Below, one piece after another: positions 34,201 through 64,000 of a stretch of 64,000 nucleotides of DNA (positions are counted from its first letter, which is position 1; every line of letters begins with the position of its first letter). The stretch is taken from contig CAZCRI010000001.1 in the NCBI GenBank assembly GCA_964501135.1, forward strand, positions 192,393-256,392, in the 5' to 3' direction. The position numbers and the translations under genes were made by a program. Source of the DNA: an uncultured Candidatus Saccharibacteria bacterium. GTDB lineage: Bacteria > Patescibacteriota > CPR2 > UBA1875 > CAIMLA01. Under the pieces are notes generated by a model that worked only from the letters and a program-made list of their open reading frames with translations, did no database searches and was not told the origin of the DNA.

Positions 34201-34304
34201 TCCTACAGCTCATCTTAAAGTCACTCGAGGAAACCTTCGCTTGGACAAAGAACCTCAATCAATTCTTTGGAAATATTGGCAAAAGAATCACTGGTAAAAA
34301 GTAA
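25254..34304 (+). CDS. Giant cell-surface protein 1 (3016 aa, TTG start). It has an N-terminal membrane anchor, a Gly-rich region, Ig-like/Fn3 repeats, a DUF1566/C-type-lectin-like domain and a C-terminal Fn3 (purple-acid-phosphatase-N-like) array
   Basis: GGGAGGG RBS. TM VSAFLVSLLLFTSLQYLLPLL. Poly-Gly tracts (GGGGGGGG). A recurrent DNAGN motif at Ig-like domain ends. A lectin-like ...CSLIGGRLPKVNEL...YWTATE...RCVAD segment near nt 29530-29790. The C-terminal ~730 aa are paralogous to the next gene. Confidence 0.8.
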   Translation: MAKKPRFLKARSYCKKAVSACSAIFGLAIVRALTFFIDRARIWRFELMYKLHLKVRSVHDNLVIKNVIYRKVTENRYAIPVRNASVSAFLVSLLLFTSLQYLLPLLNPFKATGVQAGSTTYNWPTNSPFSSAVTTPNMDFSTTPNSAQLTRGLDHYLETGTGTDGSLTVSNPMTVWRNGVQVTNVTSYNINTDKSTPSRVCSEGGDAVNYSVTAITPTSATLLNTPAANCLAMGDEILLINLKGTPTNYANVGNYETFTISSISSNVINFSSVKTKYYGNDGGDANIGSTINVNQIVMLQRVPNYSSVNVTGTLTGSSWDITYKKNGVLFFRNTGTTTVSGVITMDGKGYSGGTVVNGGEGYNGTGGNGGIYNSVGNIGQGGGGGGGGNTKAGGQGTTGSGGGGGGIGQNSSTWFGGGGGGGGYGTVGTGGYYSNRIGSPGSGNQGGAGVSSNSGIGASGGGGGIYGSSSTLNSKIYFGSGGGGGGTSGTSGGPGYPGGSGGGIIHIGSNNITVSASGNISAKGSKGGDNGTAYWYGSGGGGAGGSVYFSSNSVNNSGTVSASGGTGGVGSAAASAGGTGGSGRIGIQHISTSTFGTISPTPTNIQIGSFTGVYQYASSGNIGTAATDAGGLVLDAGIGRAIKPFSLDWSADTTISGQKIYFKVRTAAQSSDLHSASCYGPAGSDPTCSDWSTVGTYFSQVNSDGSITTSPSELPGSILSTILPNRYVEILVYMEVAERSSSPVLTNLTLSYDSLDYPSYDKLLLYKSDASTVLKNSSGSNISLGAANSVGGYNNESTVVLKATDLTCGTAANDNYCSGSVSGSTSRKPQVEVREVGAAFDDTTLVEGANYFASESTSTTSTGELQSGQVSITGLQTGKQYHVRVRIVDAQSRVSAWTAYGNNAESVADFSIEQDSPTLSTFTINSGASYSSSSNVTLNISATDSGGSGLSQMQFSNNGTDWGKTADIDGNITDTGWATYATSYSWNVAKGVVDGGSDTARTVYARVRDNAGNVSGRLHNTKADFEGSGYQKGLGTIIAANGTLSLQTFSGSESVSLTGTDGTTRTYTGASEVNVGWSGSCPNISINIGGASAYSGGDGSGATGWMSGSTTTVSCYDDTGENSASITFNISFRSTQLPVFDTYSSPTIALGTGSTATQIGWVNTSVPGDSSVKFKVATKDSDTGWQTSDFIGPDDTENTFYDISSGQNLSTQHLNKRYLRYKAFLYSTSDRLQTPILDSVSIYQALVATTILDTQTPTGTVAIRDSSSGYALSKNVTLNLEPSDAAPSSGLKDFALSNDGITWSGWTNWSETYRAAGVGYSWTLAAGADGTRNVYVKYRDNAGNVGGVNIPGDNWTPGQAETGYATELVGKYVYNFDDQSYPYLKWKSDRADCSGNQCSKTAYPAPDSFNSQANVLVSPQFNPGVTFGTEYPAQEACSLIGGRLPKVNELRAIYAGKVAGHYSNLDDYSYWTATEVPWSSGNRTSAYLVQFYNNGNLSFDVKDSTIARTRCVADVTPTIGVSVTLDVSGPATTLNINPATPNGDNAWYKIGKPTVAFSSSDSASKTDKTYYEFVTTGAAAPTVGAYTNTLTNSGQVDPYQPSIPVGNIPEGDNTLYWYAVDKAGNVESVHNQQIKVDIQTPATTYVIDPELPNGDNNWYTLTAPTITLSSNDPGTPNYSGVATLYYAWETDTNQAGCTAPKYWESNVGRCFNVYAGAFSPNDGSHTLYYFSKDNAGNADAVTTEQISYISQLPSVPSNFRAPVGDPETDGSHIKLYWNASSSVSGIVAYQILRKREIDSWGQRDATIDLPLPLSNTIYLDSNETTTPNGLNILETGQRYNYKIRARDNAGNWGSFSTDKLGYTADFISPTPVTGVLAEACDGTLYDSQNSPNGKCSDIGNEGFEVKLTWNSSNDTGVGMSKYIIYRSTTNSADEAEWPVVGVLEYASGQETIWFDNDTNNAATFTTDKPSATPILNDSTDYYYRIRAFDNTESGNPTALFPSDPGLFLSNFSSTTTPDVTAPTVPSNVVASPLGLDSSGSHQKVHLTWSESKDYRRRSSDEVAGIVNYNVYQATNPAGPYTLARTTSEIVIDLDGLDEFTNYYYAVESYDSVPNTSARSDSATARTASNSVPTTPTDVTVTTKTGDPATDSQIGHKNTISFNGSYAKNCLNSVGCLTKYEVYRSTNNYSDYQTWLTNGTKIAEVAPADLRDDRTATVQNNQGNVVRSEPYQVVDTGQIYPATSANGLTNATTYYYRVWALDNTPDPVTGGVCPVTLVGVQCNYHSPMTTVEVGTPHAGWDTTADDEAPALPTELKVKDIHDDGYAFKRNIITWARIEDPLRNGTNDFYEYRIYRSDDGVTWEQICTDGTNQYLQAECGLPNESHYNPLFNADQELGLATNYYMDLIPNSLANQYYYYHVTAVDNAGSSFRYSNGQVINKVGNVTYSNESEPARDGNGNIVSESLNPAIAKPTITTTGAFAPRMVNVGVSSASLQWYADQPTDSVVEFKAVSDTEWITIGEREKKNPDTPHVVNLFGLRPATEYEYKLISRNSLGNEDVLGDRQEEKVTVPNFTTNSFTVNYQADKIEKSTVSIKLFWTTNMPANTNIVEYKLSNGDQTGSTAETPVNLDAIPSNGRNCAATPSLCNHTVTLSPLRGASEYTFKIRAMSLDGFNTETSFLSFITDNADTRQFTMVPSSSNVADRNITATSAQIVWQTAVPTTAIVHFGTSKSGPYASTATDSVFSSSHVVVLEGLTPGETYYYWVEAKDINNLVYSSPEYSFKAVLKPKISNMQLKNVTPYAVTIAWDTNIETETVINWGKTAVYGEKRGVSGLSKVHQVVIDNLEDNQEYHYQILAKDETGNEVADTDKIVRTPLDTEGPKITNAKTDILPMGENDTTASVIISWNTNKPATTLVEYDEGIIGGGYGNRSVEDTSLNTSHTVIIKNLKPASSFHYRMVSADKRNNITQSQDYTFVTPTKEKSILQLILKSLEETFAWTKNLNQFFGNIGKRITGKK

Positions 34305-34398: not shown

Positions 34399-37300
34399 GT
34401 GATGAAACCTAAAAAAGCTCAGCTAAATTCAGTGTGGAAACGAGCTACAAAGCTACTATCGAAAAGTAGTAATTTTAGGTTACGCAAAAGTTTTTTTACT
34501 CAAATTCCGTTGCGTTCACTATCCTTCGTCTGGTCACTCTTCAAACATATTATTTCTTTCCTAGCGAAGAACGTTATCTTGGTCCTTATAAATTTTATTG
34601 ATTATCTAGTAAAACTGCTCCAGATATTACGCTATGAGCTGACCTATAAATTCCACCTCAAGGTTCGCTCGGTACATGACACTTTGGTAATACGTGTGCC
34701 GGTTTACAAGAAGGTTACAGAACATCAGCTAGCTGTCCCAGTACGCAATGCAACTGTATCGGCTTTCTTCTGCTCATTAGCAATCTTTTTATCTCTCCAG
34801 TATGTACTGCCTCTTTTTAATCCGTTTGCCCCACAGGGAGCTCACGCGGGATCAAATAGTGCGACCTGGACCACAGATTCTGACTTTAATAACAATACAA
34901 TTACAACAAACACACCTACAACCAAGAATACAACAAATTTTGCAGGTACAGTTCTTGCCACAACCGGTAGTACTTCAGTTGTGGGCACGGGTACATCTTT
35001 TGCAGATTATCTGGATCCTTTTAATACTCCTAAGGCTATTAATATAGACGATGTTTCTTATGGTGTGGCTAGTGTGACCGACAATACCCATCTGACACTT
35101 ACTGCAAACTATCAAGGGACTACTGGCTCGGGGAAAACATTCACCTTTGATAATGTTGTAGTGAATGATGATGCCATAAGTCTACGTAAATATGGTCTCC
35201 CTGTAACTAAAACTTCAACTTTTACAGTTCCTAGCGGTGTCACGAAAATATATATTGACATGAAGGGTGGCGGAGGCGGTGGTGGTTCTACTGTTTATTC
35301 TGGAGGGAATTGCGGACAAGCCGGAGGCGCCGGGGGATACTCAGCGCTTAAGATTGATAACGGACTAGAATACTGGGCATTCGGCGGCGGCGGAGGTGGA
35401 GGAGGTTGCCCTAACTTTGTTGGGGCAACAGGCTCTCCTGGAACCTATAATCACCGAAACGTTCCCACCTTAATACCCGTTGATGGAGGGGCAAATAATG
35501 GAGGTATAGGGGGTTACTATGCAAGTACTAGCCGTGGAGGTAATGGTGGTGCGGGGGGCAGGATCACGGGCACATTGGCAGTCACTGGGGGTCAAGTTGT
35601 CACAATAACAAATGGTGCTGCAGGGGTTGGTGCTACTGGCCCAAGCGGATGGCCAAAGGTAAACGGAGCGAATGGATCCGCAGGCTCTGTAGAGGTACTG
35701 TATTACATCCCTGCATTTGCAGGAAATGGTAATATAACTGGCTTTAAAATTGATGCAGGGGCAGGACTTAAATATAAGTGGAGTTCCTTATCATGGGTTA
35801 CTGATGCCTTACCAAGTAATACATCGGTGAGGTTTAAATACAGAACATCAGACGACGGTTCCAGCTGGTCTGATTCTACCTGGTCACAAACAGGAACGGC
35901 ACAAATAACTGGTAGTTCAGGAGGAGCTTCTTTGACCAGTTTGAGTGCTTCCAGATACTTGGAACTTCAGCTGCTGCTGTATTCCGTAGACGGAGTCTAT
36001 TCCCCTAAGCTAAATGAGTTTATAGTACAGTACGATACCTTGGAAGCACCCTTAAATGAAAACCTATCGTTAACTGACATAAGTAATAACTCATTAAGAA
36101 CCACAACGGGTATGATTACAGACGTTCCGATCGAGACCACTTCTATACCGGCGGGGCATTCCAGATATGGAACTCCAAACACTTGGACAAATCAAGCTAC
36201 AGTAAGGCTTAAGGCAAACAACCTTACCTGCGGGAGTGGTGTGACGGCATGTACTGTTACTTCTACAAACCTAAGACCAGAAGTGGAGATAAAGCCTATT
36301 GTTAATGGGGTTCCAACGGCATTTACGGGCAGTGGAGTGACGGCAGATGAAGGCAAGACCTATGTCGATATTTCTGGTTTAGCTACAAACTCAGCCTACC
36401 ATATCCAAGTAAGAGCCGTGGATGGTCAGGCCAGAGCATCTGCCTGGGTGTCGTATGGAAATAACGGAGAGTCGGAACCAGATGTTACGGTAGAACAAAC
36501 GTCTCCCACCCTTCAGCTTAATGGTTTTGCGGATCAAGCTGGCAGTGATATTTTGGAAAAAGGAGGTGTGCTATACACCAGGAGTAATCAGGTAAAGATG
36601 AAGATTGGAACCTCTGACAATGGGGGTATACGTTCGAACCTTGCAAAAGTAATGATAACTAACAACCTCGACGACACAGGGTGGCAGGATGTTACGAATC
36701 AAATTACAAACTATCAGACACAGTATCTTGGACAATCATCGTTTACTGGGCTAGTACCCTGGACTCTTGAGGGCACGGACGGAGTAAAGACCGTTACTGT
36801 CAAAACTGTAGACAATGCTGGCAACGTCAGTGGACAGAGCATTGTGACTTCAACGGAGCTATCTACTACCGATAGTACTTTTGTGGTTTCTCCTGCAGGT
36901 AATGCGGGCGGCGCTGTAGTTGTAGATAATAAACTTCAGTTATCATCGACAACTAGTGGCGGAGTGGGTAGTTCGACTACCTCTGTATACCCAACAAATG
37001 ATGAAACTACATACTGGGATGAATGGTGCGGAGGCTGGTCATTGGATGAAAACCCAATGGGCACCAATTCTGGCTACGATAATGACTGTGGGAGTTGGGG
37101 GCAAGATGCGCACATTACCTTCAATAACGGTTTAGTTTCTGGTCTAACAAATGCAAGTATAAGGATTACCAGTAATGGTGATGCACTTACCTGGGTCTGG
37201 CATGATACGACAGGTACTTCTAATAGTGTTAATCTGACTACTAATACACCAAATTCACTAGATATCACGGCAATGGTCCAGGCAGATATTGCGAATGGTG

Positions 37301-40300
37301 ATACCTACACTGACGTGTGGGTAAACAACGGAATGGGTGTATATTCAATGGAGGATCCGATTCCTAGTTATAGGCCCCAATTAACACTAACAGCAAGTAC
37401 TCCAAGTACAACTACCTTTGACACACCAGAAACATTTACCTCTCGTATTCTCTATAGCGGTGCCACAAGTCCAGACTATAGTGCATTTACCACTAGTCAG
37501 ACAAATAACGGACAAACCATTTCATATCAGATGCGCTCGGGTAATAATGCCACTACTATCGATGGTTCGTGGGGCAGTTGGTACTCGGTAACGCCTGGTA
37601 GCTCTATAAATGCAAATCTTAGTGGCACGAACAGGGGTTATTTCCAGTACAAGGCAACTCTATCCACATCTAATCCGGCAGTTACACCAACTATCAGCAG
37701 TGTAACTGTGGCTGGTGCATATACGCCTCCTTCTGAAGGTACGGTGTATTCGGCGAATATCACTCTTGATCTTATTGGTCCGGCAACTTTTGATGTTTCT
37801 CTGCCAGCCGACAATACTTGGAGTGGCTCCAATAAGCCGACCCTAACCTGGACGGCCTCCCAGGATAATCCAGGGTCGGGACTGTATAAATATGAACTCT
37901 ACATGGATGGGGTACTTAAGAAAACCATTGATGACACTACCGTGGGGGCAACGGCAAACATCCTTAGCGCTACTCCTGGGAGTGACGTGTCATATACCTT
38001 ACAAACTGGCGAGGAATTATCGGAAAAGATGCATACTTGGTATGTGAAAGCATATGACAAGGCACTAAATACCGCCGATTCTACCAGGGGAGTCAGCAAC
38101 CCTTTCCATATTGGTTATGATAGCTCGCTTCCGAATACCGTGCCAACTACAGATATCTCGGCTCAGGCGTCTGGGTGGTTTACCACGAGCCCGCAAATCA
38201 CTCTTACGGCTACAGATCCAGGCGCAGGTGATGGTTCTGGTATCTCCGAGATTAAATATCGTTGGGATAATAGCGATCTGTCAACCGGTGCCACTACTTA
38301 TGCTTCGGCGATAAACATGTCGGCCACTATTGGAGACGGCACGCACGTTTTATATTTCCGCTCCAAGGATACTGCAGGAAACTATGAATCAGTAAAACAG
38401 CAGACCTACAAACTCGATACTATTAACCCAAACACAGATTATTCTATAAGTAACACTCCGCCGAACGGTGACAATGACTGGTACGTAGGAACTGCGCCTA
38501 CTATTTCGCTTACCCCGCATGATGAAGGAAGTGCGAACGCTTCGGGTGTGGCCACTACAAAATATCAGTGGGTCAACCATGGTGCTCAGCCAGGGGCAAC
38601 ATGGCTTACTGGCACTAGCTTTGCCGCATCGCTTGGGGATAAGACACTTTACTACTACTCTACAGACGTAGCTGGGAATGATGGTGCACAGTATGAGCAA
38701 CAACACGTAAAATTTGACAATGTGAGCCCTATTTCTCCGACTGGCTTTGATGCTCCCACAGATAGAGCGTATACGGATTCGATCTACCTCAAATGGAACG
38801 GCGTTACTGACACTTCAGGTGTCCAGACCTATCAGTTGAGAAGAAAAAAAGATAGCGATACCTGGAGCGGTTTGTCCGTTGTTGATTTGGGAGCTGTCGG
38901 GAATATAACCACCTATACAGATGCTAATGGTCTAGAAGCTGGCTATAAATATACTTATCAAATAAAAACCCAGGATAATGCAGGCAATTGGAGCGACGGC
39001 TGGTCGAGTGGTAACCCAGACCAGGTAGTTGGCTATACTATCGATACCGTAACGCCGACAGTCCCTAGTGGCGTCGTCGCGGCAGCTTGTGATGGATCCG
39101 GGGCTACGCTTGCGATCCCAGATACTGACCCGGCAGTGACCACGCCAATATGTACTAGTATTAGCAATAAGGGCTATGAAATCACGTTATCTTGGAAGCA
39201 AGCGGGTGATACGGGTGTGGGCCTTGGCGGATACAAGATCTACCGTTCGGCTGACGGCGATACTGCCGATGAGACCAAGTGGGTGATGGTAGGTGTGCTT
39301 CCTTGGACTGGCGCCGAGGTACTCAAGTGGAATGATAACAATACAAACAACTTAGCAACCTGGGACATTGGAACGTACCCAAGTACGCATCAGAAATCCG
39401 GACAACAGGCAGGGAAGACGGATCCTTCAGATCCATTGAGCGACTCTACCACTTACTACTATCGAGTCACCGCCTACGACGCTGTTAATAACGAGAGCGC
39501 ACTGTTCCCACCAATTTTCCCAGATCCAGACATGAACAGGACGGCTGCTGTGACCCCAGACGTTACCGCGCCTGGCTGGTTTGATGTACAGGGAAACCGA
39601 ATCAGTGACGCTGGCGTTTCTGCTGTGGCACTCGGCCTTGATGGTAGTAACCTCGATGACGAAAACATTGGTCATCAGCGAATAGTAGTAAGCTGGAACA
39701 CTGCTATCGACAAAAAACACAACGGGGATGTTCTCGAAGGTTCGGTACCTAGCTACGAACTATACCGCTCAGCGACTAGCTACCAAACTGACGGTGAGTG
39801 GCTTGCGAGTGCTACCAAACTTACACTGAGCCCAACTACGGCCGTGACCTACGAGGACAACGGGCTCGCTGACTCGACAGTTTACTATTATCGAGTGCTT
39901 ACCTATGACGTGAGCGCCAACAAATCAGACCTCTCCAGTCGGGAGGGGAGTGACCACGCCACTACCTATGATTCTAATATCCCATCAGCTCCGAGTGAGG
40001 TCCGTGTGTCGACGGCAAAGGGAGATCCTAACGTCGCAGACTCCCAAGTGGGAAACACGATAAACATTAGCTTTAAGGGAAGTAACTCCAAATATCGTGA
40101 AATTGTGAAGTACGAGGTTTATCGTTATGAAGCGGATACTAATAATCTTAGTAACAGCCAGTGGCTTGATAGTACGCAGACCACGAAACTCAAGATTTCC
40201 CACTCAGATAGTTGTGGTAGCAAGTGCGAGACCTATACGGCTGGGTCCTCAGGCGGCGACATCGAGATTACGGCGAATCAGGATGACCGCGATAATGAGT

Positions 40301-42621
40301 ACCGGATCCTAGATACGGGGCTTTCCGACGCTCATACCTACTTTTATCGAGTGAGAGCTCAGGACAACGCCTATGTTCCAAACGAACCAGAGCAAAGCTA
40401 TCGTTTCGGGCCACTTTCAAACATTTCTCCGCTGGATTCGAACGAAGCGGCTAGATTCGGTTGGGACACGACTCCTGACGCCACTGCTCCAGACATCAGT
40501 GCGAGCGACCTTGCTCTTTCCGTAAAAGACACACACCCTAGTGACACTTGGCTCCGTAACGTTGTCACTTGGAGAGTGGCAGACAAGACAAAAATCATTC
40601 GCCGGAAACAACTTGGCTCAGGATGCACGACCGTACTCACCGTTGGTAGCACGGAGTATTGCACAGATTTTGCTAGATATGAAATTCATCGTGAGGTTTA
40701 CGATCAAACCGATGTTCTTATCCCTGAGATGAATGAGACCTTTACATTTACCGATATTAATACCAATATTTTGGTGGATTCCGTTGCGGTGGCATATAAA
40801 TCTGACAAATTTAAGTATTATATGGTAATAGTCGATAATGCAGACACAGAATATAGGTACGCAAACGGTACGGTGATTAATAAGAGTGGGTCTACAACGA
40901 ATGTTCCAAATATGACCAGTAAAATATATTGGAATGGTTCTATTACTCCTGAGAAGTCCCATGCCGTGATTGACAGTGTTGCTCTAAGTGGTGTTGGGGT
41001 ATCAAGCGCCACGGTTACCTGGCATACTGATCAAAGTACGGACTCGTTGGTTGAATATAGGCCAATGAAAAAAGTTTCGGGCAATTGGGTCGTAGATGAT
41101 AGCTCGAGTAACCAGTTTGTAGCAGTAGGCCATAGGGAGACTGATGTAAACCATTCGGTATATATTTTTGGGATGAAACCGGAAACTAGATACGAATATC
41201 GGGTAATCTCGAAGAACTATCCATTTGCCAACGAAACGGTGGTTTCTACTGGTTTACCAGAGCTAGTGACGAAGGGATTTATCATTACCTATATTCCTTC
41301 GCCAGAGAATGTTTCTACTGTATCGGCTGACATTCGTTGGACGACTAATATGCCTTCGAATTCGAATATGGTAGAGTATCGCGAAAGTAATGGTAGCCAG
41401 AATGGCGCCATGGCAGAGACTCCTCTCAAGTCCGAAGAGATTACGAATGAGATGAAGGATTGTGTAGCAAATCCGGCCTCGCCGCTCTGTACGCACTCTG
41501 TAACGTTGTCACCTTTGAAGAAAAATACTGAATATACAATAAATATTGTCTCGATTTCGCTTGATAATTATACTTCAACTTCTGGTTTACAGCGTTTTAC
41601 TACCGCCAATTCTGATTCAAAACAATTTACAATTGCTCCATCTGCTTCTAATGTTGCTGAACGAAACATCACCTCTACATCAGCCCAGATTGTCTTCCAG
41701 ACTTCAGAGGCAACGACAGCGACTCTGTATTATGACACAGACAGTGGTGCACCAAACTATGATCCAAAAGACTACAAACAGACCGCTACAGATGCAATGA
41801 AGGGAACTACTCATGCAATTCTGCTAGATGGTCTAGAGCCGGGGAAGAAATACTTCTACGTTGTTAAAGTAGATAATGGTCTCTTGTCTTACACCTCTCC
41901 AGAGGCCTCATTTACCGCCGTCCTTAAACCGAAGATTTCGAACCTAAAGATTTCTGATGTGAAGCCATACTCCTTTAGTATCACCTGGGATACCAATATT
42001 GATACCGAGACCCTGATAAACCTAGGTACAAGTGCTAACTACACCGAAAAGCGCGGCAAATCTGGCCTTACCAAGGTTCACGAACTCTTAGTTGACGGCC
42101 TACAGGATAATACTGAGTACCACTACCAAATTCTAGCCAAGGATGAGACGGGTGAAGAGGTAGCTAGTGGTGATTCAGCAGTCCGTACGCCACTTGATAC
42201 CGAAGGCCCTAAGATTACTGGAGTGAAGGTGGATATCTTGCCAATGGGAGAGAGTGACGCCACTTCTTCAATCATTGTTTCATGGCAGACTAACAAACCG
42301 GCCTCAACACTGGTAGAATATGACCAGGGTATCATTGGCGGTACCTATAATAGTCGCTCGGTAGAAGATAGCACTTTGAATAATTCCCACACTGTAATTA
42401 TCAAAGGTCTCGCACCAGCCTCCTCTTATCGCTATCGTCTGATATCGAAGGATAAACGGCAGAATACCACTATTTCACAGGACTACACCTTCGTAACGCC
42501 GACAAAAGAAAAATCCATCCTACAGCTCATCTTAAAGTCACTCGAGGAAACCTTCGCTTGGACGAAGAACCTCAATCAATTCTTTGGTAATGTTGGTAAA
42601 AGATTAACAGGTGGGAAGTAA
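34399..42621 (+). CDS. Giant cell-surface protein 2 (2740 aa), a paralog of giant protein 1 with a divergent central region
   Basis: Shared N-terminal block (ELTYKFHLKVRSVHDTLVI...PVRNATVSAF...LQYVLPLFNPF) and shared C-terminal Fn3 array ending ...TPTKEKSILQLILKSLEETFAWTKNLNQFFGNVGKRLTGGK. Gly-rich region and Ig-like repeats. Confidence 0.8.
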   Translation: MMKPKKAQLNSVWKRATKLLSKSSNFRLRKSFFTQIPLRSLSFVWSLFKHIISFLAKNVILVLINFIDYLVKLLQILRYELTYKFHLKVRSVHDTLVIRVPVYKKVTEHQLAVPVRNATVSAFFCSLAIFLSLQYVLPLFNPFAPQGAHAGSNSATWTTDSDFNNNTITTNTPTTKNTTNFAGTVLATTGSTSVVGTGTSFADYLDPFNTPKAINIDDVSYGVASVTDNTHLTLTANYQGTTGSGKTFTFDNVVVNDDAISLRKYGLPVTKTSTFTVPSGVTKIYIDMKGGGGGGGSTVYSGGNCGQAGGAGGYSALKIDNGLEYWAFGGGGGGGGCPNFVGATGSPGTYNHRNVPTLIPVDGGANNGGIGGYYASTSRGGNGGAGGRITGTLAVTGGQVVTITNGAAGVGATGPSGWPKVNGANGSAGSVEVLYYIPAFAGNGNITGFKIDAGAGLKYKWSSLSWVTDALPSNTSVRFKYRTSDDGSSWSDSTWSQTGTAQITGSSGGASLTSLSASRYLELQLLLYSVDGVYSPKLNEFIVQYDTLEAPLNENLSLTDISNNSLRTTTGMITDVPIETTSIPAGHSRYGTPNTWTNQATVRLKANNLTCGSGVTACTVTSTNLRPEVEIKPIVNGVPTAFTGSGVTADEGKTYVDISGLATNSAYHIQVRAVDGQARASAWVSYGNNGESEPDVTVEQTSPTLQLNGFADQAGSDILEKGGVLYTRSNQVKMKIGTSDNGGIRSNLAKVMITNNLDDTGWQDVTNQITNYQTQYLGQSSFTGLVPWTLEGTDGVKTVTVKTVDNAGNVSGQSIVTSTELSTTDSTFVVSPAGNAGGAVVVDNKLQLSSTTSGGVGSSTTSVYPTNDETTYWDEWCGGWSLDENPMGTNSGYDNDCGSWGQDAHITFNNGLVSGLTNASIRITSNGDALTWVWHDTTGTSNSVNLTTNTPNSLDITAMVQADIANGDTYTDVWVNNGMGVYSMEDPIPSYRPQLTLTASTPSTTTFDTPETFTSRILYSGATSPDYSAFTTSQTNNGQTISYQMRSGNNATTIDGSWGSWYSVTPGSSINANLSGTNRGYFQYKATLSTSNPAVTPTISSVTVAGAYTPPSEGTVYSANITLDLIGPATFDVSLPADNTWSGSNKPTLTWTASQDNPGSGLYKYELYMDGVLKKTIDDTTVGATANILSATPGSDVSYTLQTGEELSEKMHTWYVKAYDKALNTADSTRGVSNPFHIGYDSSLPNTVPTTDISAQASGWFTTSPQITLTATDPGAGDGSGISEIKYRWDNSDLSTGATTYASAINMSATIGDGTHVLYFRSKDTAGNYESVKQQTYKLDTINPNTDYSISNTPPNGDNDWYVGTAPTISLTPHDEGSANASGVATTKYQWVNHGAQPGATWLTGTSFAASLGDKTLYYYSTDVAGNDGAQYEQQHVKFDNVSPISPTGFDAPTDRAYTDSIYLKWNGVTDTSGVQTYQLRRKKDSDTWSGLSVVDLGAVGNITTYTDANGLEAGYKYTYQIKTQDNAGNWSDGWSSGNPDQVVGYTIDTVTPTVPSGVVAAACDGSGATLAIPDTDPAVTTPICTSISNKGYEITLSWKQAGDTGVGLGGYKIYRSADGDTADETKWVMVGVLPWTGAEVLKWNDNNTNNLATWDIGTYPSTHQKSGQQAGKTDPSDPLSDSTTYYYRVTAYDAVNNESALFPPIFPDPDMNRTAAVTPDVTAPGWFDVQGNRISDAGVSAVALGLDGSNLDDENIGHQRIVVSWNTAIDKKHNGDVLEGSVPSYELYRSATSYQTDGEWLASATKLTLSPTTAVTYEDNGLADSTVYYYRVLTYDVSANKSDLSSREGSDHATTYDSNIPSAPSEVRVSTAKGDPNVADSQVGNTINISFKGSNSKYREIVKYEVYRYEADTNNLSNSQWLDSTQTTKLKISHSDSCGSKCETYTAGSSGGDIEITANQDDRDNEYRILDTGLSDAHTYFYRVRAQDNAYVPNEPEQSYRFGPLSNISPLDSNEAARFGWDTTPDATAPDISASDLALSVKDTHPSDTWLRNVVTWRVADKTKIIRRKQLGSGCTTVLTVGSTEYCTDFARYEIHREVYDQTDVLIPEMNETFTFTDINTNILVDSVAVAYKSDKFKYYMVIVDNADTEYRYANGTVINKSGSTTNVPNMTSKIYWNGSITPEKSHAVIDSVALSGVGVSSATVTWHTDQSTDSLVEYRPMKKVSGNWVVDDSSSNQFVAVGHRETDVNHSVYIFGMKPETRYEYRVISKNYPFANETVVSTGLPELVTKGFIITYIPSPENVSTVSADIRWTTNMPSNSNMVEYRESNGSQNGAMAETPLKSEEITNEMKDCVANPASPLCTHSVTLSPLKKNTEYTINIVSISLDNYTSTSGLQRFTTANSDSKQFTIAPSASNVAERNITSTSAQIVFQTSEATTATLYYDTDSGAPNYDPKDYKQTATDAMKGTTHAILLDGLEPGKKYFYVVKVDNGLLSYTSPEASFTAVLKPKISNLKISDVKPYSFSITWDTNIDTETLINLGTSANYTEKRGKSGLTKVHELLVDGLQDNTEYHYQILAKDETGEEVASGDSAVRTPLDTEGPKITGVKVDILPMGESDATSSIIVSWQTNKPASTLVEYDQGIIGGTYNSRSVEDSTLNNSHTVIIKGLAPASSYRYRLISKDKRQNTTISQDYTFVTPTKEKSILQLILKSLEETFAWTKNLNQFFGNVGKRLTGGK

Positions 42622-43057: not shown

Positions 43058-45520
43058 TTGGGAGTAGCTATACAATTTCTGTTATTTGTAATAGTTGGCG
43101 GTTTGGCCTTGTGGGGGGTATTTTTTATGGTGAAACATACCACTTACTGGAAGAAACAGATGGAGCGCTCACTCAAGATGGTTCCTCTCCTTTTGACCAT
43201 TCCTAGAGATTCTGGGTCCAAGGATTACGAAGCTAAAAATCGTGATGATCGTGATATGATGCGCGAGGTTATTTCGGTGGCAGAGACTTTTTACTCCAAT
43301 ATGACAGTGCTCTATAATAAGTATAAGTTTGTAAAAAACCTGATTGTTGGGCCACCTCACCTTGCGGCAGAAATTGTTGCTAAGGACAAGGAAATATTTT
43401 TCTATCTTGCAGTACCCTATGCTTTTCTCGAAATGACCGAAAAGGCGCTTTCCGCACAATATCCCGAGTGTAATCTAGAGCGTGCCGAGGAGCACAATAT
43501 TTTTAGTGAAAAGTGGGGGATAGAGAACATCGCTGGCGGTGAGATAAGGGCTAGTAACTCATATTTCTTCCCTTTTAAATCATATGCAGAGCTTGACTCG
43601 GAGCCTCTGGAGAATATTACAAATGCTTTTGCCAAGATGCATCCCGAGGAAGGCGCTGCGTTGCAAATCCTTTTCCGTCCCGCAAAGCCCAGTAAGGCGA
43701 AGAAGGTTAATCATGTCGCTAAAGAGATGCATCATGGGAAGAGCCGAGATCTCTTTAGTGCGCTATGGCGAATAATTGATGCCATGAATGCCAAGGGGGA
43801 TCAGGCTGAGGCCAATCGCCTGACGCCGATGGAAGAAGATGCGGTGAAGGCGGTGGAGAAAAAGGCTGCAAAGCCACTTTTCGATACGATGATACGCATC
43901 GTTGCCTCTACCGACAGTAAGCAGCGTTCAGAAATGTTTGCCAAGGAGATTGCGAGCACTTTCGTTCAGTTTAATGATCAGAACTTAAATTCCTTCCAAT
44001 ACGTACCGGCTCGCGATACAGAAGAACTAGTTACGGATTATATTTTCCGTTTCTTCGCCCACAAGATATTCAGCATGAATCGTCTTTTTCGTTTACACCG
44101 TGGGCACGAAATCGTCTTAAATACGGAGGAGCTCGCTTCGGTTTTTCATTTACCAAACTATTTGGTCAAGACCCCAGGAATTCGTTGGTTACCATCAAAG
44201 AAAGCGGCGCCTCCTACCTTTATCTCTGAAAACGGAGTTGTTATTGGACACAGTCAGTACCGAGGGGATGACAATATTATCCGAATCGACGAAAACGATC
44301 GACGAAGACATCTCTATATCCTGGGTCAAACTGGTACCGGTAAGTCGACCAGTATGATTAACATGATTATCTCGGACATCCGCGAAGGTAAGGGGGTTTG
44401 CTACATAGACCCACACGGCCAGGATTTGGAAGAGCACGTTTTACCATATATTCCCAAGGAGAGAGCCGAGGACGTGATTATCTTTAATGCCTCGGACACA
44501 GAGCGTCCGATAGGCCTTAATCTCTTTACGGCCAAAACCCAGGAAGAGAAAGACTTCGTAATCCAAGAGGCGATTGCGATGCTTTATCGACTTTACGACC
44601 CAGGTCACACCGGTATCATGGGGCCGCGTTTTGAGCACTGGTTCCGTAATGCAGCGCTTACTCTAATGGCAGGGCCAATACCAGGAACCTTTATCGAGGT
44701 ACCAAGAATATTTACCGATGACAAGTTCCTGGCCGAAAAGCTGCAGTACGTAACAGATCCTGTAGTTCGTAATTTCTGGATTAACGAAATGGGACAGACT
44801 AGCGATTATCATAAAAGCGAAATGCTTGGATGGTTTGTCGGCAAGTTTGGCGCTTTCATGACTAACATGACGATGCGAAATATCTTGGGGCAGCCAGAAT
44901 CGGCAATCGACATTCGCAAGATTATGGATGAGGGTAAAATCTTGCTCGTTAATCTTGCCAAGGGTCAGACCGGTGAGATGAATATGCAGCTTCTCGGCAT
45001 GATGCTGGTGGCAAAGATTCAAATGGCAGCAATGAGCAGAGTAGATATGCCGGAAAATGAACGGCGTGACTTTTACCTTTACGTGGATGAGTTCCAGAAT
45101 TTTGCTACCGATTCGTTTGCTTCAATTCTTTCCGAAGCTCGCAAATTCCGTCTGAACCTTATTGTGGCGAATCAGTTTATTGGCCAGCTCAAAGATGAGA
45201 TTCGCGACGCCGTCTTTGGTAATGTTGGTAGCCTGATGTGTTTTCGTGTCGGCAATGACGACGCCGAGTACATGGCAAAGCAGTTTGTGCCTCTTTTTAA
45301 TCAACAGGACCTCATCAATATTGAAAACTATAACAGTATTGCAAAGATTCTGGTGGATGCGAAACCGTCTCGACCTTTCAGTCTAGAAGGATACAATTAC
45401 CCACCTAACAAAAGTGTTGAGATTGGGGAAGCGATAGAGCAATTGTCTCGTTTGAAGTACGGTAGACCGCGTGATATAGTAGATGCAGAAATACAAGAAA
45501 GAATGAGTATAAAACTTTGA
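43058..45520 (+). CDS. FtsK/HerA-superfamily type IV secretion / conjugation ATPase (VirD4/TraG coupling-protein-like or VirB4-like)
   Basis: N-terminal TM. Walker A HLYILGQTGTGKST followed by CYIDPHGQ (compare TrwB HLLVNGATGTGKS...VIVDPNGD). Walker B FYLYVDEFQNF. ARKFRLNLIVANQFIGQL matches the RK...Q motif of T4SS ATPases. 820 aa. Confidence 0.65.
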   Translation: MGVAIQFLLFVIVGGLALWGVFFMVKHTTYWKKQMERSLKMVPLLLTIPRDSGSKDYEAKNRDDRDMMREVISVAETFYSNMTVLYNKYKFVKNLIVGPPHLAAEIVAKDKEIFFYLAVPYAFLEMTEKALSAQYPECNLERAEEHNIFSEKWGIENIAGGEIRASNSYFFPFKSYAELDSEPLENITNAFAKMHPEEGAALQILFRPAKPSKAKKVNHVAKEMHHGKSRDLFSALWRIIDAMNAKGDQAEANRLTPMEEDAVKAVEKKAAKPLFDTMIRIVASTDSKQRSEMFAKEIASTFVQFNDQNLNSFQYVPARDTEELVTDYIFRFFAHKIFSMNRLFRLHRGHEIVLNTEELASVFHLPNYLVKTPGIRWLPSKKAAPPTFISENGVVIGHSQYRGDDNIIRIDENDRRRHLYILGQTGTGKSTSMINMIISDIREGKGVCYIDPHGQDLEEHVLPYIPKERAEDVIIFNASDTERPIGLNLFTAKTQEEKDFVIQEAIAMLYRLYDPGHTGIMGPRFEHWFRNAALTLMAGPIPGTFIEVPRIFTDDKFLAEKLQYVTDPVVRNFWINEMGQTSDYHKSEMLGWFVGKFGAFMTNMTMRNILGQPESAIDIRKIMDEGKILLVNLAKGQTGEMNMQLLGMMLVAKIQMAAMSRVDMPENERRDFYLYVDEFQNFATDSFASILSEARKFRLNLIVANQFIGQLKDEIRDAVFGNVGSLMCFRVGNDDAEYMAKQFVPLFNQQDLINIENYNSIAKILVDAKPSRPFSLEGYNYPPNKSVEIGEAIEQLSRLKYGRPRDIVDAEIQERMSIKL

Positions 45521-52803: not shown

Positions 52804-55311
52804 ATGGCAAAAGAGAAGAAACTGTTAGACGAAAAAATGTTTGGTGAAGAGATCGGTTACGTTCGTGAGCGAGATCTTCGGACTGAAATGCAAGAGAGCT
52901 TTCTCGACTATGCAATGTCGGTTATTGTATCCCGCGCACTACCTGATGTCCGCGATGGCCTAAAGCCGGTACATCGTCGTATTTTATATGCAATGAATGC
53001 CCTGGGCATTCGCTCCAATACTAAATATCGTAAGTCTGCGATGGTCGTCGGTGAAGTGCTCGGTAAATATCATCCTCACGGCGATACTGCGGTTTACGAC
53101 TCTATGGTCCGTATGGCCCAGTACTGGTCAATGCGTTATCCGATGATTGACGGTCAAGGTAACTTTGGCTCGATGGACGGAGACGGTGCTGCCGCGATGC
53201 GTTATACCGAGGCTCGTATGGCAAAGATGGCAGATGAAATGCTCGCCGACATCGATAAAGACACTGTGGACTTTATGCCAAACTATGATGGTAGTCAGAA
53301 GGAGCCAGCGGTTCTTCCTGCTAAGCTTCCGTTACTACTACTCAACGGTCAGCTCGGTATTGCTGTGGGTATGGCAACTAACATCCCGCCGCACAACCTA
53401 GGAGAGTTGGTTGACGGTATTACCACCCTTATCGACAAGCCAGAATCTACGGTCGAGGATCTAATGGAGTTTATCAAAGGCCCTGACTTTCCTACTGGTG
53501 CTCAAATTTATGACCCCGAAGTAATTAAGCAGGCGTATGCTACGGGTCGTGGCTCGATTATTATGCGTGCGGTTGCAGAAATCGAGGAAGATAAACGTGG
53601 CCAGCAGCGCATTGTAGTTGCTGAAATTCCATATCAGGTAAATAAGGCCACTCTTATTACTCGTATCGCAGAGCTAGTAAAAGAGAAAACCATTGTCGGA
53701 ATCTCTGACATTCGTGATGAATCTGACCGCAAGAACCAGGTTCGTATTGTGATAGAGCTCAAAAAGGAAGCCTTTGCGAGTAAGATATTGAATCAGCTTT
53801 ACAAGCTCACGCAAATGCAAAGCAACTTTGGCGTCAATATGATTGCCCTTGTTGATGGTATTCAGCCACGAATTATGACACTCAAGTCTATCCTAGAGGA
53901 GTTTATCAAGCACCGCCAAGTAGTGGTTACGCGGCGGACCCAGTTTGAACTCAAGAAGGCCAAGGATAGAGCTCACATCCTAGAAGGATTACTGAAGGCC
54001 CTCGATAATATCGACGAAGTTATCGCTACAATCAAGAAATCAGCGACTCAAGACGAGGCAAGACAGAACCTGATCAAGAAGTTTGGTTTATCCGAAGTCC
54101 AGGCGAATGCAATTCTTTCTATGCAGTTACGCACCCTCGCTGGGCTTGAGCGTAAGAAGATCGAAGACGAATTTGCTGAGCTCATGAAACTTATTGCTTA
54201 CCTCGAGGATCTGCTTGCACACCCAGAGAAAGTCCTCGGTGTTATCAAGGGTGAACTTCTGGAAATCAAAGAGAAGTATGCAGATGAACGCCGCACCAAA
54301 CTTGTTGGTCACGCTCTAGGGAAGTTTAACGAAATTGATCTGATTCCAAATGAAGATGTGATCGTCACAATGACCGAAGGTGGCTACATCAAGCGTATCC
54401 TCAGCTCTACCTATCGAGCACAGGGCCGTGGTGGCAAGGGAATCTCTGGCACCAGCCTCAAGGAAGAGGACGTCGTAGAGCATCTTCTGCACGCAAGTAA
54501 TCATGACACAATTCTTTTCTTTACCAATCAGGGTAGGGTATTCGCCAATAAGGTCTACGAGCTTCCAATGGCATCGCGTATTGCCAAGGGTTCCCCAGTG
54601 ATTAATGTTGTCCAGCTAGCTCCAGAGGAGAAGGTAACGGCAATCTTGACTCTTGCGAAATTCGAAGGTGAAGGCAATCTCTTTATGGCCACGAAGCTTG
54701 GTACTGTAAAGAAGACGCCACTTTCAAACTTTGCAAACATACGTAAGACCGGCATTATCGCCATCGGTCTGGACAAGGGCGATGAGCTCAAGTGGGTCGA
54801 GGCTACCAGTGGTAGTGATGACGTGATTATGTCCACCAAGCAATCGATGGTGATGAGATTCAACGAAAAAGACGTCCGCCCAATGGGACGTAATGCTCGT
54901 GGCGTGCGTGGAATCCGACTAAAGAAGGACGATGAAGTAGTCGGAATGGACATTGTCGTTGAGAAGAGTGAGCTGATGGTAATCATGGAAAATGGTTATG
55001 GTAAGCGTACTGCGATAGAGCAATTCACCCCTCATCATCGTGGTGGCGTCGGCATCAAGGGCGGCGTTGTGACCGCAAAGACCGGAAGCTGTGTTGATGT
55101 TCGGGTAATTACCTCTACCGAGGATGATTTAATGATCATTAGTAACGGGGGACAGATTATCCGTGTTCCACTCTCAAGTGTTTCCAAGATCGGACGTGCT
55201 ACCCAGGGAGTTCGAATCATGAAGCTTCCAGATGGCGAAACAGTTTGTTCCGTAGCTCTGGTACATGAACCAGAAGAAGAAAACGAACAACTCACTATAG
55301 CAACCGAATAA
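52804..55311 (+). CDS. gyrA: DNA gyrase subunit A
   Basis: [28 protein letters not shown], the active-site Tyr region, the QRD-like region [17 protein letters not shown], and a C-terminal beta-pinwheel. 835 aa. Confidence 0.95.
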
Positions 55312-60611: not shown

Positions 60612-60640
60612 TTGACAGCGCCCTCGAAAATTGTTAAGAT
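60612..60640 (+). promoter_or_regulatory. Probable rRNA promoter, TTGACA-17nt-TAAGAT
   Basis: TTGACA at 60612-60617, TAAGAT at 60635-60640, about 190 nt upstream of 16S. Confidence 0.45.
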
Positions 60641-60829
60641 ATTGAGGCTTTTTACAAAGCGGAATCATGCGTGAAAATTAAGCGCCTTCTAGGAGCTTAG
60701 AGATTTTCTTTGCGCAAAGTTCAAAGTTCTTTGACAGCAGAATAATAGCAGAAACAAAACCAAACCCTTAAATTTCTTTAGTAGAACATAACTACTCAAA
60801 AAAAATGAAAACAGAGCATTAAAACTCTA

Positions 60830-62288
<1,459 letters not shown>

Positions 62289-62488
62289 CTAAGGAGTAAG
62301 ATGTTGTTTATTCAACAATCTAGGCCGAATCGAGACTTACGTATGTTAGATATACCCTCAGGGTTGATAATATATTAAATTATCTTGAAGGTTTGGTTCC
62401 CTGTTCTGCTATTATTCGGCTGTCAAAAGTCGGCAAGAGACTCCACTTCGGTGGTGTTTTTTGTTTCTATAAAGTAAGATTGAGTGTG

Positions 62489-63208
62489 ATGAAGATAGAA
62501 GCCATAAAAACTGAGATTATCACCCCTTCCTCTATTTCGCTGGAAGCATTTTTGGATAAGTACATTACTGAACTTCACGAGGAAGTTATTGTCGTATTCT
62601 CGTCAAAAGTAATATCGCTCATCGAGGGCAGGGTATCTCGGGAGCTAGAAAAGCGAGAAGAGCTGGTTCGCAAAGAAGCGGATTTTATTTCTCGAGAAGA
62701 GACCAAGAATGCACATCACATAATCATTAAGGAACATGCATTTATCTTTGGCGCTGGCATTGACCTTTCAAATGCTGCTGGCACCCTGGTTTTGTTACCG
62801 GAGAACGCGATGCAAACTGCCCGAGAGATACAACAATATTTGGCTAACAAATTTAAGTTAAAGCAGTTTGGGGTAATTATTTCGGACAGTAGGTCGTTGC
62901 CGCTTCGCAGAGGCACCGTTGGCGTTGCCCTCGGGTTTAGCGGGTTCTCCCCACTCTTGGATTATCGCGGAACCCCGGATATTTTCGGTAGGAACTTTGA
63001 AGTAGAGGTTTCGAACATCGTTGATTCCATAGCAATTGCCGCGAATTTGGCGATGGGCGAGGGCACAGAACAGACGCCGATAGCTGTGGTTTCTGCCGTG
63101 CCTTCCGTTAAGTGGGACGACTCCTTCCCCACCGAGGAACAGCTGAATGAGCTCTTCTTGGATCTAGAGGAAGACCTCTTCTATCCTTTTTATAAAAACA
63201 TATTTTGA
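62489..63208 (+). CDS. CofE-family protein (F420-0:gamma-glutamyl ligase-like)
   Basis: VIVVFSSKVISLIEGRV, GAGIDLSNA, VIISDSRSLPLRRGTVGVALGFSG and FGRNFEVEVSNIVDSIAIAANLAMGEGTEQTPIAVV align block by block with archaeal CofE. Start taken at MKIEAIK. Confidence 0.8.
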   Translation: MKIEAIKTEIITPSSISLEAFLDKYITELHEEVIVVFSSKVISLIEGRVSRELEKREELVRKEADFISREETKNAHHIIIKEHAFIFGAGIDLSNAAGTLVLLPENAMQTAREIQQYLANKFKLKQFGVIISDSRSLPLRRGTVGVALGFSGFSPLLDYRGTPDIFGRNFEVEVSNIVDSIAIAANLAMGEGTEQTPIAVVSAVPSVKWDDSFPTEEQLNELFLDLEEDLFYPFYKNIF

Positions 63209-63217
63209 GGTGAGACC

Positions 63218-63787
63218 ATGAAAGACATTGAGATTGAAATTCAGGTACGTGTTCAAAACGTAAAACCGCTTATCGAGAGGTTGGAACGCGAGGGAACCTT
63301 CGTTTTGGATGATCACCAGAAGGACGAGTACTTTACACCCCTACATCGTGATTTCTTTAGTAAAAAGCCAATAGATGAATGGCTACGAGTACGTGAATCA
63401 GGAAAGAATTCTATCACCTACAAGAATTGGCACCATCGAGAAGATGGAAAATCTAATCATTGCGATGAATATGAAACAGAGGTTGTTAGTCCCGAACAGG
63501 TGAGAAATATCTTTCGCGTTCTAGACATTGAGCCACGGATTGTTGTAGATAAACACCGACGTAGCTGGAACCATGGCAAATACGAGGTATCAATTGACGA
63601 GATAAAGGGGTTGGGTACTTTCGTGGAAGTAGAATATAAAGCAGCAGGTTTAGTAGACCCCGACCAAGTTGCTCGGGAAATGATTGAATATTTAAAAGAG
63701 ATAGGGGTCGGAAAGATTGAGATGAACTATGTTGGGTATCCATATCTCATACTCTATGGCACAGAGGGATATTTTCAAGAAGTTTAG
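63218..63787 (+). CDS. CYTH-domain protein (class IV adenylyl cyclase / triphosphate tunnel metalloenzyme-like)
   Basis: N-terminal EIEIQVRV (ExExK-type start), then the CYTH-like ...GTFVEVEYK end. Confidence 0.7.
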   Translation: MKDIEIEIQVRVQNVKPLIERLEREGTFVLDDHQKDEYFTPLHRDFFSKKPIDEWLRVRESGKNSITYKNWHHREDGKSNHCDEYETEVVSPEQVRNIFRVLDIEPRIVVDKHRRSWNHGKYEVSIDEIKGLGTFVEVEYKAAGLVDPDQVAREMIEYLKEIGVGKIEMNYVGYPYLILYGTEGYFQEV

Positions 63788-63796
63788 CCAAAATTA

Positions 63797-63825
63797 TTGA
63801 TAATATCAGGGAAATCTGGTAGAAT
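63797..63825 (+). promoter_or_regulatory. Sigma70-like promoter, TTGATA-17nt-TAGAAT, upstream of tRNA-Ile (and presumably 23S)
   Basis: TTGATA at 63797-63802, TAGAAT at 63820-63825. Confidence 0.45.
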
Positions 63826-63914
63826 ATTGTCTGTTAGTTGCTTGTTATTTGTTTTTGGTTCTTAGCTAAAAACGAATAGCCAATAACTAAGAACGGGTTG
63901 CGGGCGATTAGCTC

Positions 63915-63954
63915 CCCGATGCTTCGATCGGGATCCCGACTGTATACGTCGGGG
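63915..63954 (+). repeat. Tandem hairpins (copy 3 of the CCCGAC...GTCGGG motif) 19 nt upstream of the tRNA
   Basis: CCCGAT-gcttcg-ATCGGG, then AT, then CCCGAC-tgtata-CGTCGGGG. Confidence 0.5.
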
Positions 63955-63972
63955 CAGATGGTTGGTTCGCTA

Positions 63973-64000
63973 GGGCGATTAGCTCAGATGGTTAGAGCGC
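63973..64000 (+). tRNA. tRNA (probably tRNA-Ile), 5' portion only, cut by the window end
   Basis: GGGCGATTAGCTCAGATGGTTAGAGCGC. The D-arm GGTTAGAGCGC is typical of tRNA-Ile(GAU) in rRNA operons. Confidence 0.6.

Follow-up and report, generated by a model that had tools for sequence, protein, structure and literature searches.

Several described systems come close to the locus analyzed here, which lies at the downstream end of a 64,000-nucleotide (nt) stretch of DNA (the window) from an uncultured Candidatus Saccharibacteria bacterium (assembly GCA_964501135.1, contig CAZCRI010000001.1, positions 192,393 to 256,392 of the forward strand). The first is the unlinked ribosomal RNA (rRNA) gene, reported as typical of Patescibacteria, Rickettsiales, Deinococcus-Thermus, and others, which is defined by more than 1500 bp from the 3′ end of the 16S gene to the next 23S gene (Brewer et al., bioRxiv 10.1101/705046). 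Another is FolC2, the CT611 protein of Chlamydia trachomatis, a member of the CofE family that complements an Escherichia coli folC mutant (PMC1971073; also PMC4161248 and PMC5041015), and beside it stands CofE itself, with solved structures from Archaeoglobus fulgidus (2PHN, 2G9I, and 7ULD; PMC10861534). The last are the CYTH or triphosphate-tunnel metalloenzymes (TTM). In the window, a 16S gene is followed on the same (+) strand by a CofE-family gene, a CYTH gene, a promoter-like site, and the start of a transfer RNA (tRNA) gene. We conclude, with a probability of roughly 70%, that this locus flanks an unlinked 16S gene on its downstream side in Patescibacteria (the Candidate Phyla Radiation, CPR) and holds variable cargo, and that it is not an insert within a working 16S-tRNA-23S operon. 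Neither unlinked rRNA genes in Patescibacteria nor FolC2-type ligases are new, and the two cargo genes are ordinary, functional ones; what is fresh is that whole genes turn over in this place among relatives with near-identical 16S, the rest being a new instance of the known unlinked arrangement. The features that define the locus are as follows.

60830–62288, + strand: 16S rRNA gene, complete and without insertions (Rfam RF00177, 1521.7 bits, model positions 1–1533)
62489–63208, + strand: CofE-family (COG1478) gamma-glutamate ligase gene, FolC2-like type, 239 amino acids (aa) (PF01996, E = 6e-33; TIGR04132)
63218–63787, + strand: CYTH/TTM gene, 189 aa (PF01928, E = 1.4e-19; TIGR00318)
63797–63825, + strand: predicted tRNA-Ile promoter, sigma-70-like, TTGATA-17-TAGAAT with TG (also TTGATA-17-TGGTAGAAT) (consensus scan)
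63973–64000, + strand: tRNA-Ile(GAU), first 28 nt, cut by the window end (identity to the tRNA-Ile(GAU) of relatives)

A first-pass annotation of this stretch had already reported the two protein genes, and their order and coordinates hold in these searches. We compared the window with 11 contigs of relatives (from JGI, ENA, Logan, and NCBI), which carry L numbers below. A query with the conserved core of the 16S trailer against the metagenome collection returned three short contigs, two of them of use.

The 16S rRNA gene and its downstream flank

The 16S is the sole RNA family that Rfam found in the 64-kb window, which holds no 23S, and the 1712 bp after the 16S (62289–64000) exceed the distance by which unlinked rRNA genes are defined. 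In L001, a JGI contig, the order is 16S, ligase, CYTH, tRNA-Ile(GAU), an 84-aa membrane open reading frame (ORF), tRNA-Ala(UGC), and then 8.7 kb that hold ordinary genes and lack a 23S. In L084, an NCBI contig from a metagenome-assembled genome (MAG), tRNA-Ile, an 85-aa ORF, and tRNA-Ala are followed by 9.8 kb that are likewise free of a 23S. Since no 23S follows the tRNA genes in these relatives, we read the 16S as unlinked and not as the front of an operon with an interrupted spacer, and it is probably without a 23S partner. The first-pass annotation had set the two genes between the 16S and a tRNA-Ile/23S block; the 23S half of that block has no counterpart in the window or in the downstream sequence of either relative.

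The locus resembles published unlinked rRNA genes in its solitary 16S with more than 1500 bp free of a 23S, in the ordinary genes that come after, and in a host group that fits. It differs from them in that 1) the tRNAs of the former spacer (Ile, with Ala in the relatives) stay near the 16S, beyond the protein genes, 2) these tRNAs are apparently under a separate promoter, and 3) the genes in between vary among relatives whose 16S is 94–100% identical, a situation for which we found no published description.

Around the 16S, four elements delimit what appears to be a transcription unit of its own, comprising a promoter, a leader-trailer stalk, and a terminator-like hairpin with a T-run.

60612–60640, + strand: promoter-like site 5′ of the 16S, TTGACA-17-TAAGAT, the second hexamer being preceded by TG (10 of 12 positions match the consensus)
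60730–60766, + strand: 5′ leader strand of the 16S processing stalk (cofold with the trailer)
62289–62431, + strand: 16S trailer, the 3′ strand of which (62390–62427) closes the stalk (cofold and conservation)
62434–62466, + strand: intrinsic-terminator-like hairpin CCAC-UUCG-GUGG with an A-tract/T-run extension, followed by TTTTTTGTTT (local fold, −16.4 kcal/mol)

Cofolding paired the leader with the trailer over 34 bp, and the stalk duplex reached −78.2 kcal/mol, compared to −52.5 ± 5.4 kcal/mol for shuffled trailers. In L091, L092, L094, and L095, blastn likewise matched the leader to the trailer on the opposite strand, and the promoter-like sequence upstream of the 16S is also found in L093. 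The 180 nt that follow the 16S are ~95–97% identical among the window, L001, and L084, compared to ~65–75% in the coding DNA beyond, and the trailer core TTCTGCTATTATTC is unchanged in five relatives. The sequence of the terminator-like hairpin is kept in the window, L001, L084, L091, and L095. In L090, the stem differs (CCACCA-GAAA-TGGTGG) and the T-run is the same; since the altered stem still pairs, it is the structure and not the sequence that is conserved. Identity falls exactly at the T-run, from ~97% to ~70% or to no detectable similarity. We also considered the spacer between the 16S and the ligase as a promoter region and rejected this, since its high conservation is better accounted for by the processing stalk and the terminator. 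The 16S would be transcribed alone, from its promoter to the terminator-like hairpin at 62434–62466, with processing at the stalk.

A second promoter is predicted in front of tRNA-Ile. The block ATTGAnA ... AATCTGnTAGAATATT (also given as ATTGAnA ... TGnTAGAATATT) is invariant in L001, L084, L091, and L095, whichever gene lies upstream, and the tRNA has, as far as consensus and conservation can tell, its own conserved promoter. The first-pass annotation had proposed a fresh promoter for tRNA-Ile, and the site at 63797–63825 is indeed kept in all four of these relatives. Together, the terminator-like hairpin 3′ of the trailer and the separate tRNA-Ile promoter argue against a co-transcribed rrn operon. 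The former spacer tRNA genes would still lie near the 16S, tRNA-Ile being expressed from its own promoter and, as in the relatives, followed by the gene for the small membrane protein and tRNA-Ala. As for the tRNA itself, the last 28 nt of the window match, with 100% identity, the start of the tRNA-Ile(GAU) that ARAGORN called in L084, L091, and L094; in the window, ARAGORN called no tRNA because the gene is cut at 28 nt.

Some observations weigh against reading the locus as the flank of an unlinked 16S. The window stops 28 nt inside the tRNA, and its continuation is taken from the relatives only. The end of L084 (JBGSPL010000001.1, 1–930), including the first ~300 nt of its 16S, is chimeric: it is GC-rich and comes from another organism (62–71% identity), the remaining 16S being 100% identical to the window. 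The junction between the 16S trailer and CYTH seen in L084 is shown independently by the Logan contig L085. The terminator stem is short, with four perfect pairs, and a simple scanner that needs five did not list it. Finally, the promoter, the terminator, and the leaderless start discussed below are all predictions from sequence.

The tRNA side of the locus yielded two further observations. An 84- to 88-aa predicted membrane protein with no Pfam match is conserved between tRNA-Ile and tRNA-Ala in every relative, at 46–83% identity (L001, 11507–11761; L084, 3308–3565; L091, 1619–1885; L090, 2481–2744 on the − strand). In a second lineage (L037, 1–3389, and L039, 3381–10744), tRNA-Cys lies 3′ of the 16S and is followed by a syntenic block composed of a 122- to 124-aa ORF, tRNA-Ile, a small ORF with the motif CxDxR...HxxC, and a CofE-like ligase 0.8–1.7 kb past the tRNA, with no 23S across 13–20 kb. 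By its motifs, this small ORF is putatively beta-carbonic-anhydrase-like.

Gene turnover between the 16S and tRNA-Ile

We define the slot as the stretch that runs from the 16S terminator to the tRNA-Ile promoter. Over the 11 relative contigs and the window, it was seen in four states.

Ligase and CYTH: the window and L001 to L003 (three separate JGI assemblies)
CYTH only: L084, L085, and L095
Ligase only: L091, L092, and L094
A 122-aa ORF on the opposite strand, a 203-aa ORF, CYTH, and a MazG-like gene: L090, in which the block of tRNA-Ala and the small ORF is inverted

The boundaries of the slot fall cleanly on gene edges. Where the ligase would be, L084 has a 79-nt spacer, and in L095, CYTH begins 12 nt past the T-run. 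Slot genes have been gained and lost among close relatives, two being present here. The ligase of the window is 58% identical to its ortholog in L001 and 54% to that in L091, and CYTH is 76–77% identical in L001 and L084. The slot-resident ligases (window, L001, and L091) form one clade in a neighbor-joining tree, for which the simplest history would be one gain followed by losses. Separate acquisition of the ligase in the window and in L001, which their 58% identity might suggest, was rejected because other non-core syntenic proteins are 55–70% identical and the slot ligases are one clade. In L095, CYTH (reverse complement, 850–1416) is 57% identical to that of the window, the 16S being 97.6% identical over 838 nt, and a different allele may have replaced the original CYTH there.

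Given the saturation of synonymous sites, we express selection as the ratio of the nonsynonymous to the synonymous proportion of differences (pN/pS) and not as dS or dN/dS. This ratio is 0.34 for the ligase, 0.16 for CYTH, and 0.065 for GyrA, and the ligase and CYTH are both under purifying selection. Since each occurs in the slot without the other in relatives, we treat the two genes as independent, and they are probably separate passengers.

How the slot genes might be expressed is suggested by two short elements.

62475–62480, + strand: −10-like hexamer TAAGAT, 8 nt 5′ of the ligase start codon (from sequence)
63204–63212, + strand: Shine-Dalgarno sequence GAGGTGAG for CYTH, spanning the ligase stop codon (from sequence)

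In five variants of the slot, the first cargo gene has no Shine-Dalgarno sequence, and an A/T-rich −10-like hexamer stands 6–8 nt before its start (TAAGAT, TAAGAT, TAAAAT, TATTAT, and TATATT). It starts 12–22 nt past the T-run in four of the five. Such hexamers are common in AT-rich DNA and offer only a lead. Expression of the ligase and CYTH probably depends either on transcripts that read through the 16S terminator or on a weak promoter with a −10 element only, which would give a leaderless ligase mRNA, and CYTH would be translated from its own strong Shine-Dalgarno sequence. A speculative extension, which we hold to be doubtful, is that the slot is a preferred landing or exchange site in this clade, where small nucleotide or cofactor enzymes (FolC2-like ligase, CYTH, and MazG-like) come and go and where the first gene, leaderless or read through, would have its dosage tied to rRNA transcription, i.e., to growth rate.

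It could be argued instead that the ligase and CYTH are one module acting on a non-folate substrate, perhaps in tRNA/t6A (threonylcarbamoyladenosine) metabolism or on a triphosphorylated intermediate, and that they lie beside rRNA and tRNA genes for a reason. The packing is tight, only 9 nt separating the ligase stop codon from the CYTH ATG, and a second lineage (L075, L081, and L083) has a ligase and a CYTH of another subfamily within 2 kb on the same strand. Homologs of the ligase directly follow the t6A genes TsaD, in 16 loci that are probably one lineage, or Sua5 (L017 and L089), and in L037 and L039, the ligase follows tRNA-Ile near an unlinked 16S. The ligase homolog often overlaps the t6A gene in front of it. 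The TsaD-linked loci are L004, L007, L009, L011, L016, and 11 more, in which a gene for valyl-tRNA synthetase (ValRS) comes next; the Sua5/TsaC-linked coordinates are 9452–9937 in L017 (Berkelbacteria) and 8206–8778 in L089. However, each gene occurs without the other in close relatives, a CYTH gene lies within 2 kb of the ligase in only 3 of ~78 other loci, all three from one syntenic lineage, and adjacency to folate genes is broader, covering four folate families and several lineages. Moreover, housekeeping genes are densely packed in small CPR genomes, which makes adjacency to translation genes weak evidence. Such a module is thus unlikely. A conserved ligase-CYTH operon was also rejected as the main explanation, since a tblastn search (83 loci) found it, beyond the close relatives, in just one other lineage.

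The first-pass annotation had explained the locus by a single insertion of 1.7 kb, carrying both genes, into an intact 16S-tRNA-Ile-23S spacer, with a duplicated tRNA 5′ end left as the scar. The order of 16S, two coding sequences, and tRNA-Ile is real, and so is the repeat, which lies in the leader of the tRNA.

63837–63894, + strand: AT-rich palindromic leader hairpin (inverted repeat I1), common to L084
63902–63972, + strand: window-specific 71-nt insertion (repeats D1 and D2), missing from L001, L084, and L091

The repeat had been described as a 14-nt copy at 63902–63915; the exact direct repeat is 13 nt (63902–63914 equals 63973–63985), and the 14th base differs. With at most one mismatch allowed, this 13-mer was found three times in the window (two exact), compared to 0.03 expected from shuffles. 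The leader from 63826 to 63972 folds at −56.6 kcal/mol (z = −5.15). The 71-nt insertion is made up of a copy of tRNA nt 1–13 (63902–63914), a 40-nt pair of GC-rich hairpins (63915–63954), a copy of tRNA nt 13–28 that is degenerate at 81% (63955–63970), and TA. The two hairpins are similar (CCCGAT...ATCGGG and CCCGAC...GTCGGG). This pair occurs only once in the window, and we rejected it as a repeated mobile element; a window-specific 60-nt query (the 40-nt insert and its flanks) had no match in the metagenome collection. In L001, L084, and L091, 63902–63914 aligns onto the tRNA start itself, and since the 71 nt are missing from all three, the insertion is window-specific and recent. Judging from these alignments, it arose at the tRNA 5′ end by partial duplication or by insertion, independently of how the two genes came in.

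The repeat therefore fails as a scar of their arrival, because L001 has both genes and no repeat, and L084, L091, and L095, each without one of the genes, lack it likewise. Nor is the two-gene block a unit, as the slot of relatives may hold either gene by itself, the pair, or different genes. With no 23S after the tRNAs in L001 or L084, and with a conserved terminator-like element belonging to the 16S, a single insertion into an intact spacer is very unlikely. The relatives also carry these genes in the same place.

Functions of the ligase and the CYTH protein

The first-pass annotation had assigned the ligase to the CofE family, judged it unlikely to serve F420 synthesis, and supposed that it glutamylates something else. 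The family assignment stands, with a PF01996 (F420_ligase) match of 114.6 bits against a cutoff of 25. Among NCBIfam models, TIGR04132 ("putative folate metabolism gamma-glutamate ligase") ranks first, with 219 bits over positions 1–236 of 241, about twice the score of any CofE model. Every CofE cutoff is missed (115.4 against 180.65 for TIGR01916, and 114.4 against 274 and 95 against 304 for NF009809 and NF009810, respectively). Like CofE, the ligase belongs to the PF01996 fold family, and the motifs AGID-SN, (I/V)I(S/T)D(S/T), RRG-VG, and MGEG-E align in it; it differs in missing all equivalog cutoffs and in having no F420 context. D92, D133, G190, and E191 are invariant or near-invariant columns among 29 homologs, aligned to the motifs of the A. 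fulgidus CofE, and they are putative metal ligands, as in CofE structures.

The gene neighborhoods of homologs point to folate. In a set of 80 homologous loci from GTDB genomes (top identity to the window ligase, 47%), 21 have FolA, RibD_C, serine hydroxymethyltransferase, or Vut_1 within 5 kb. By locus count, these are FolA in 5, a RibD_C/dihydrofolate reductase (DHFR)-like reductase in 9, serine hydroxymethyltransferase (GlyA) in 9, and Vut_1, a transporter for vitamin uptake, in 9. Vut_1, the reductase, and the ligase occur as a trio in six loci (L023, L029, L034, L046, L053, and L072), ~1.5 kb upstream of the ligase match, and the cluster of Vut_1, RibD_C/DHFR-like, and CofE-like genes is a candidate salvage cassette for folate uptake, reduction, and polyglutamylation. 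The folate-adjacent homologs score 239–353 bits on TIGR04132, and one alone reaches the curated cutoff of 350; since most fall below it, this cutoff leaves out most of the family that is supported by context. By these scores, the window ligase appears at the low end of one continuum with the folate-adjacent homologs.

Other observations pull against a folate function. At 219 bits, the window ligase is below the TIGR04132 cutoff, a folate gene is neither adjacent nor turned up by the Pfam scan of the window, which covered 30 ORFs of 150 aa or more, and adjacency to folate genes is not seen at the close relatives of this locus either. In addition, the position of homologs directly after TsaD or Sua5 is not explained by the folate hypothesis. 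Folate polyglutamylation is nevertheless the best-supported function of the ligase, and we consider it likely. The "something else" of the first-pass annotation is thereby narrowed to folate, of the FolC2 type, by TIGR04132, the neighboring genes, and published work (PMC1971073). The enzyme would most likely add gamma-linked glutamates to (tetrahydro)folate that is taken up or reduced, in place of FolC.

Similarity to FolC2/CT611 is seen in the single-domain CofE homology, the similar length, and a host not expected to make F420, as well as in TIGR04132 being the top model over nearly its full length and in homologs that cluster with folate genes. The window ligase differs from FolC2/CT611, to which the experimental evidence of folC complementation is confined, in its score below the cutoff and in having no adjacent folate gene, and its role in CPR would likely be to trap salvaged folate and not to complete de novo synthesis. 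The analysis favors the view that the proteins so widely annotated as "F420 ligase" in Patescibacteria are FolC2-type folate polyglutamylases. If true, this reading would fill the missing folC step beside folA, glyA, and folD, which are common in CPR genomes (PMC11974145).

That the ligase might be a genuine CofE making F420 polyglutamate tails is encouraged by the Pfam domain name and by its solved relatives, all of which are CofE. We regard this as highly improbable, given the failed CofE cutoffs, the twofold score of the folate-type model, the absence of cofC, cofD, and cofG/H from the 30 window ORFs scanned, and the neighbors of homologs, which are folate genes and not F420 genes. Most likely, the ligase does not make F420, as had been supposed.

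The CYTH assignment, also made at first pass, holds with 71.1 bits on PF01928 (gathering score 23.2; residues 4–165). The protein passes the TIGR00318 cyaB cutoff as well (89.9 bits against 57.95). Its nearest solved structures are the TTM Saci_0718 (7NS8) and the Yersinia pestis class IV adenylate cyclase (3N0Y and 2FJT), which it resembles in that the CYTH domain spans the whole protein. The best of these is deposited only as "Triphosphate tunnel metalloenzyme Saci_0718" and not as a cyclase. The protein departs from canonical CYTH/TTM enzymes in the ExExK signature, which reads E5-I-E7-I-Q9 (63230–63244, CYTH residues 5–9). Q9 aligns with K14 in the EVELK of Yersinia, and the Gln is invariant in 13 Patescibacteria sequences that are 50–77% identical, i.e., in the window and all 12 aligned homologs. 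The annotation "class IV adenylate cyclase" is widespread for these Gln-bearing CYTH proteins of Patescibacteria, and the window protein may be a cyclase of this kind or a triphosphatase.

In the second lineage with both genes, the CofE-like ligase and CYTH are less than 2 kb apart on the same strand and syntenic (L075, 10001–12671; L081, 1138–3009; and L083, 9974–12089). The CYTH of this lineage, one member of which is labeled Kerfeldbacteria, is of a different subfamily with the canonical EIEIK. An ORF of ~450 aa comes next, which looks like a RarA-type AAA ATPase by eye and not by Pfam, and L081 has two CYTH-like genes in tandem.

Host, divergence, and assembly

A CPR host had been proposed at first pass, and the homologs agree: the named top GyrA matches are "Patescibacteria group bacterium" and Saccharimonadales MAGs, and the CYTH homologs are mostly from Patescibacteria. 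In L001, the 16S is 98% and GyrA 93% identical, with synteny from GyrA onward, and the upstream order of GyrA, an 86-aa ORF, and 16S is common to the window, L001, and L093. Compared with L001 and L093, the 16S of the window is 98–100% identical while the proportion of synonymous differences (pS) in GyrA (window 52804–55311) is 0.67–0.74, which is saturated, and non-core proteins of the same relatives are merely 55–84% identical. Either 16S identity greatly understates divergence, or the 16S has been homogenized or co-assembled. This is a caution that 16S identity or amplicons spanning 16S, internal transcribed spacer, and 23S are a poor proxy for genome similarity in this group. The locus is a well-bounded example of rRNA operon breakup in CPR; it adds little to what is known, and its value is practical.

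A junction made by metagenome assembly, for which rRNA genes are classic chimera points and of which the first ~300 nt of 16S in L084 give a real case, has next to no chance of explaining the locus, since the order of 16S trailer, ligase, CYTH, and tRNA is found in three separate JGI assemblies (L001 to L003), independent contigs from ENA, Logan, and JGI show the variant junctions again, and L001 and L093 have the same upstream synteny from GyrA to the 16S.

Elsewhere in the window, two adjacent genes encode giant proteins of 3016 and 2740 aa (25254–34304 and 34399–42621) with fn3 and Pur_ac_phosph_N-like repeats. A TrwB/DUF87-type ATPase gene (43058–45520) lies next to these giant fn3-repeat surface proteins.

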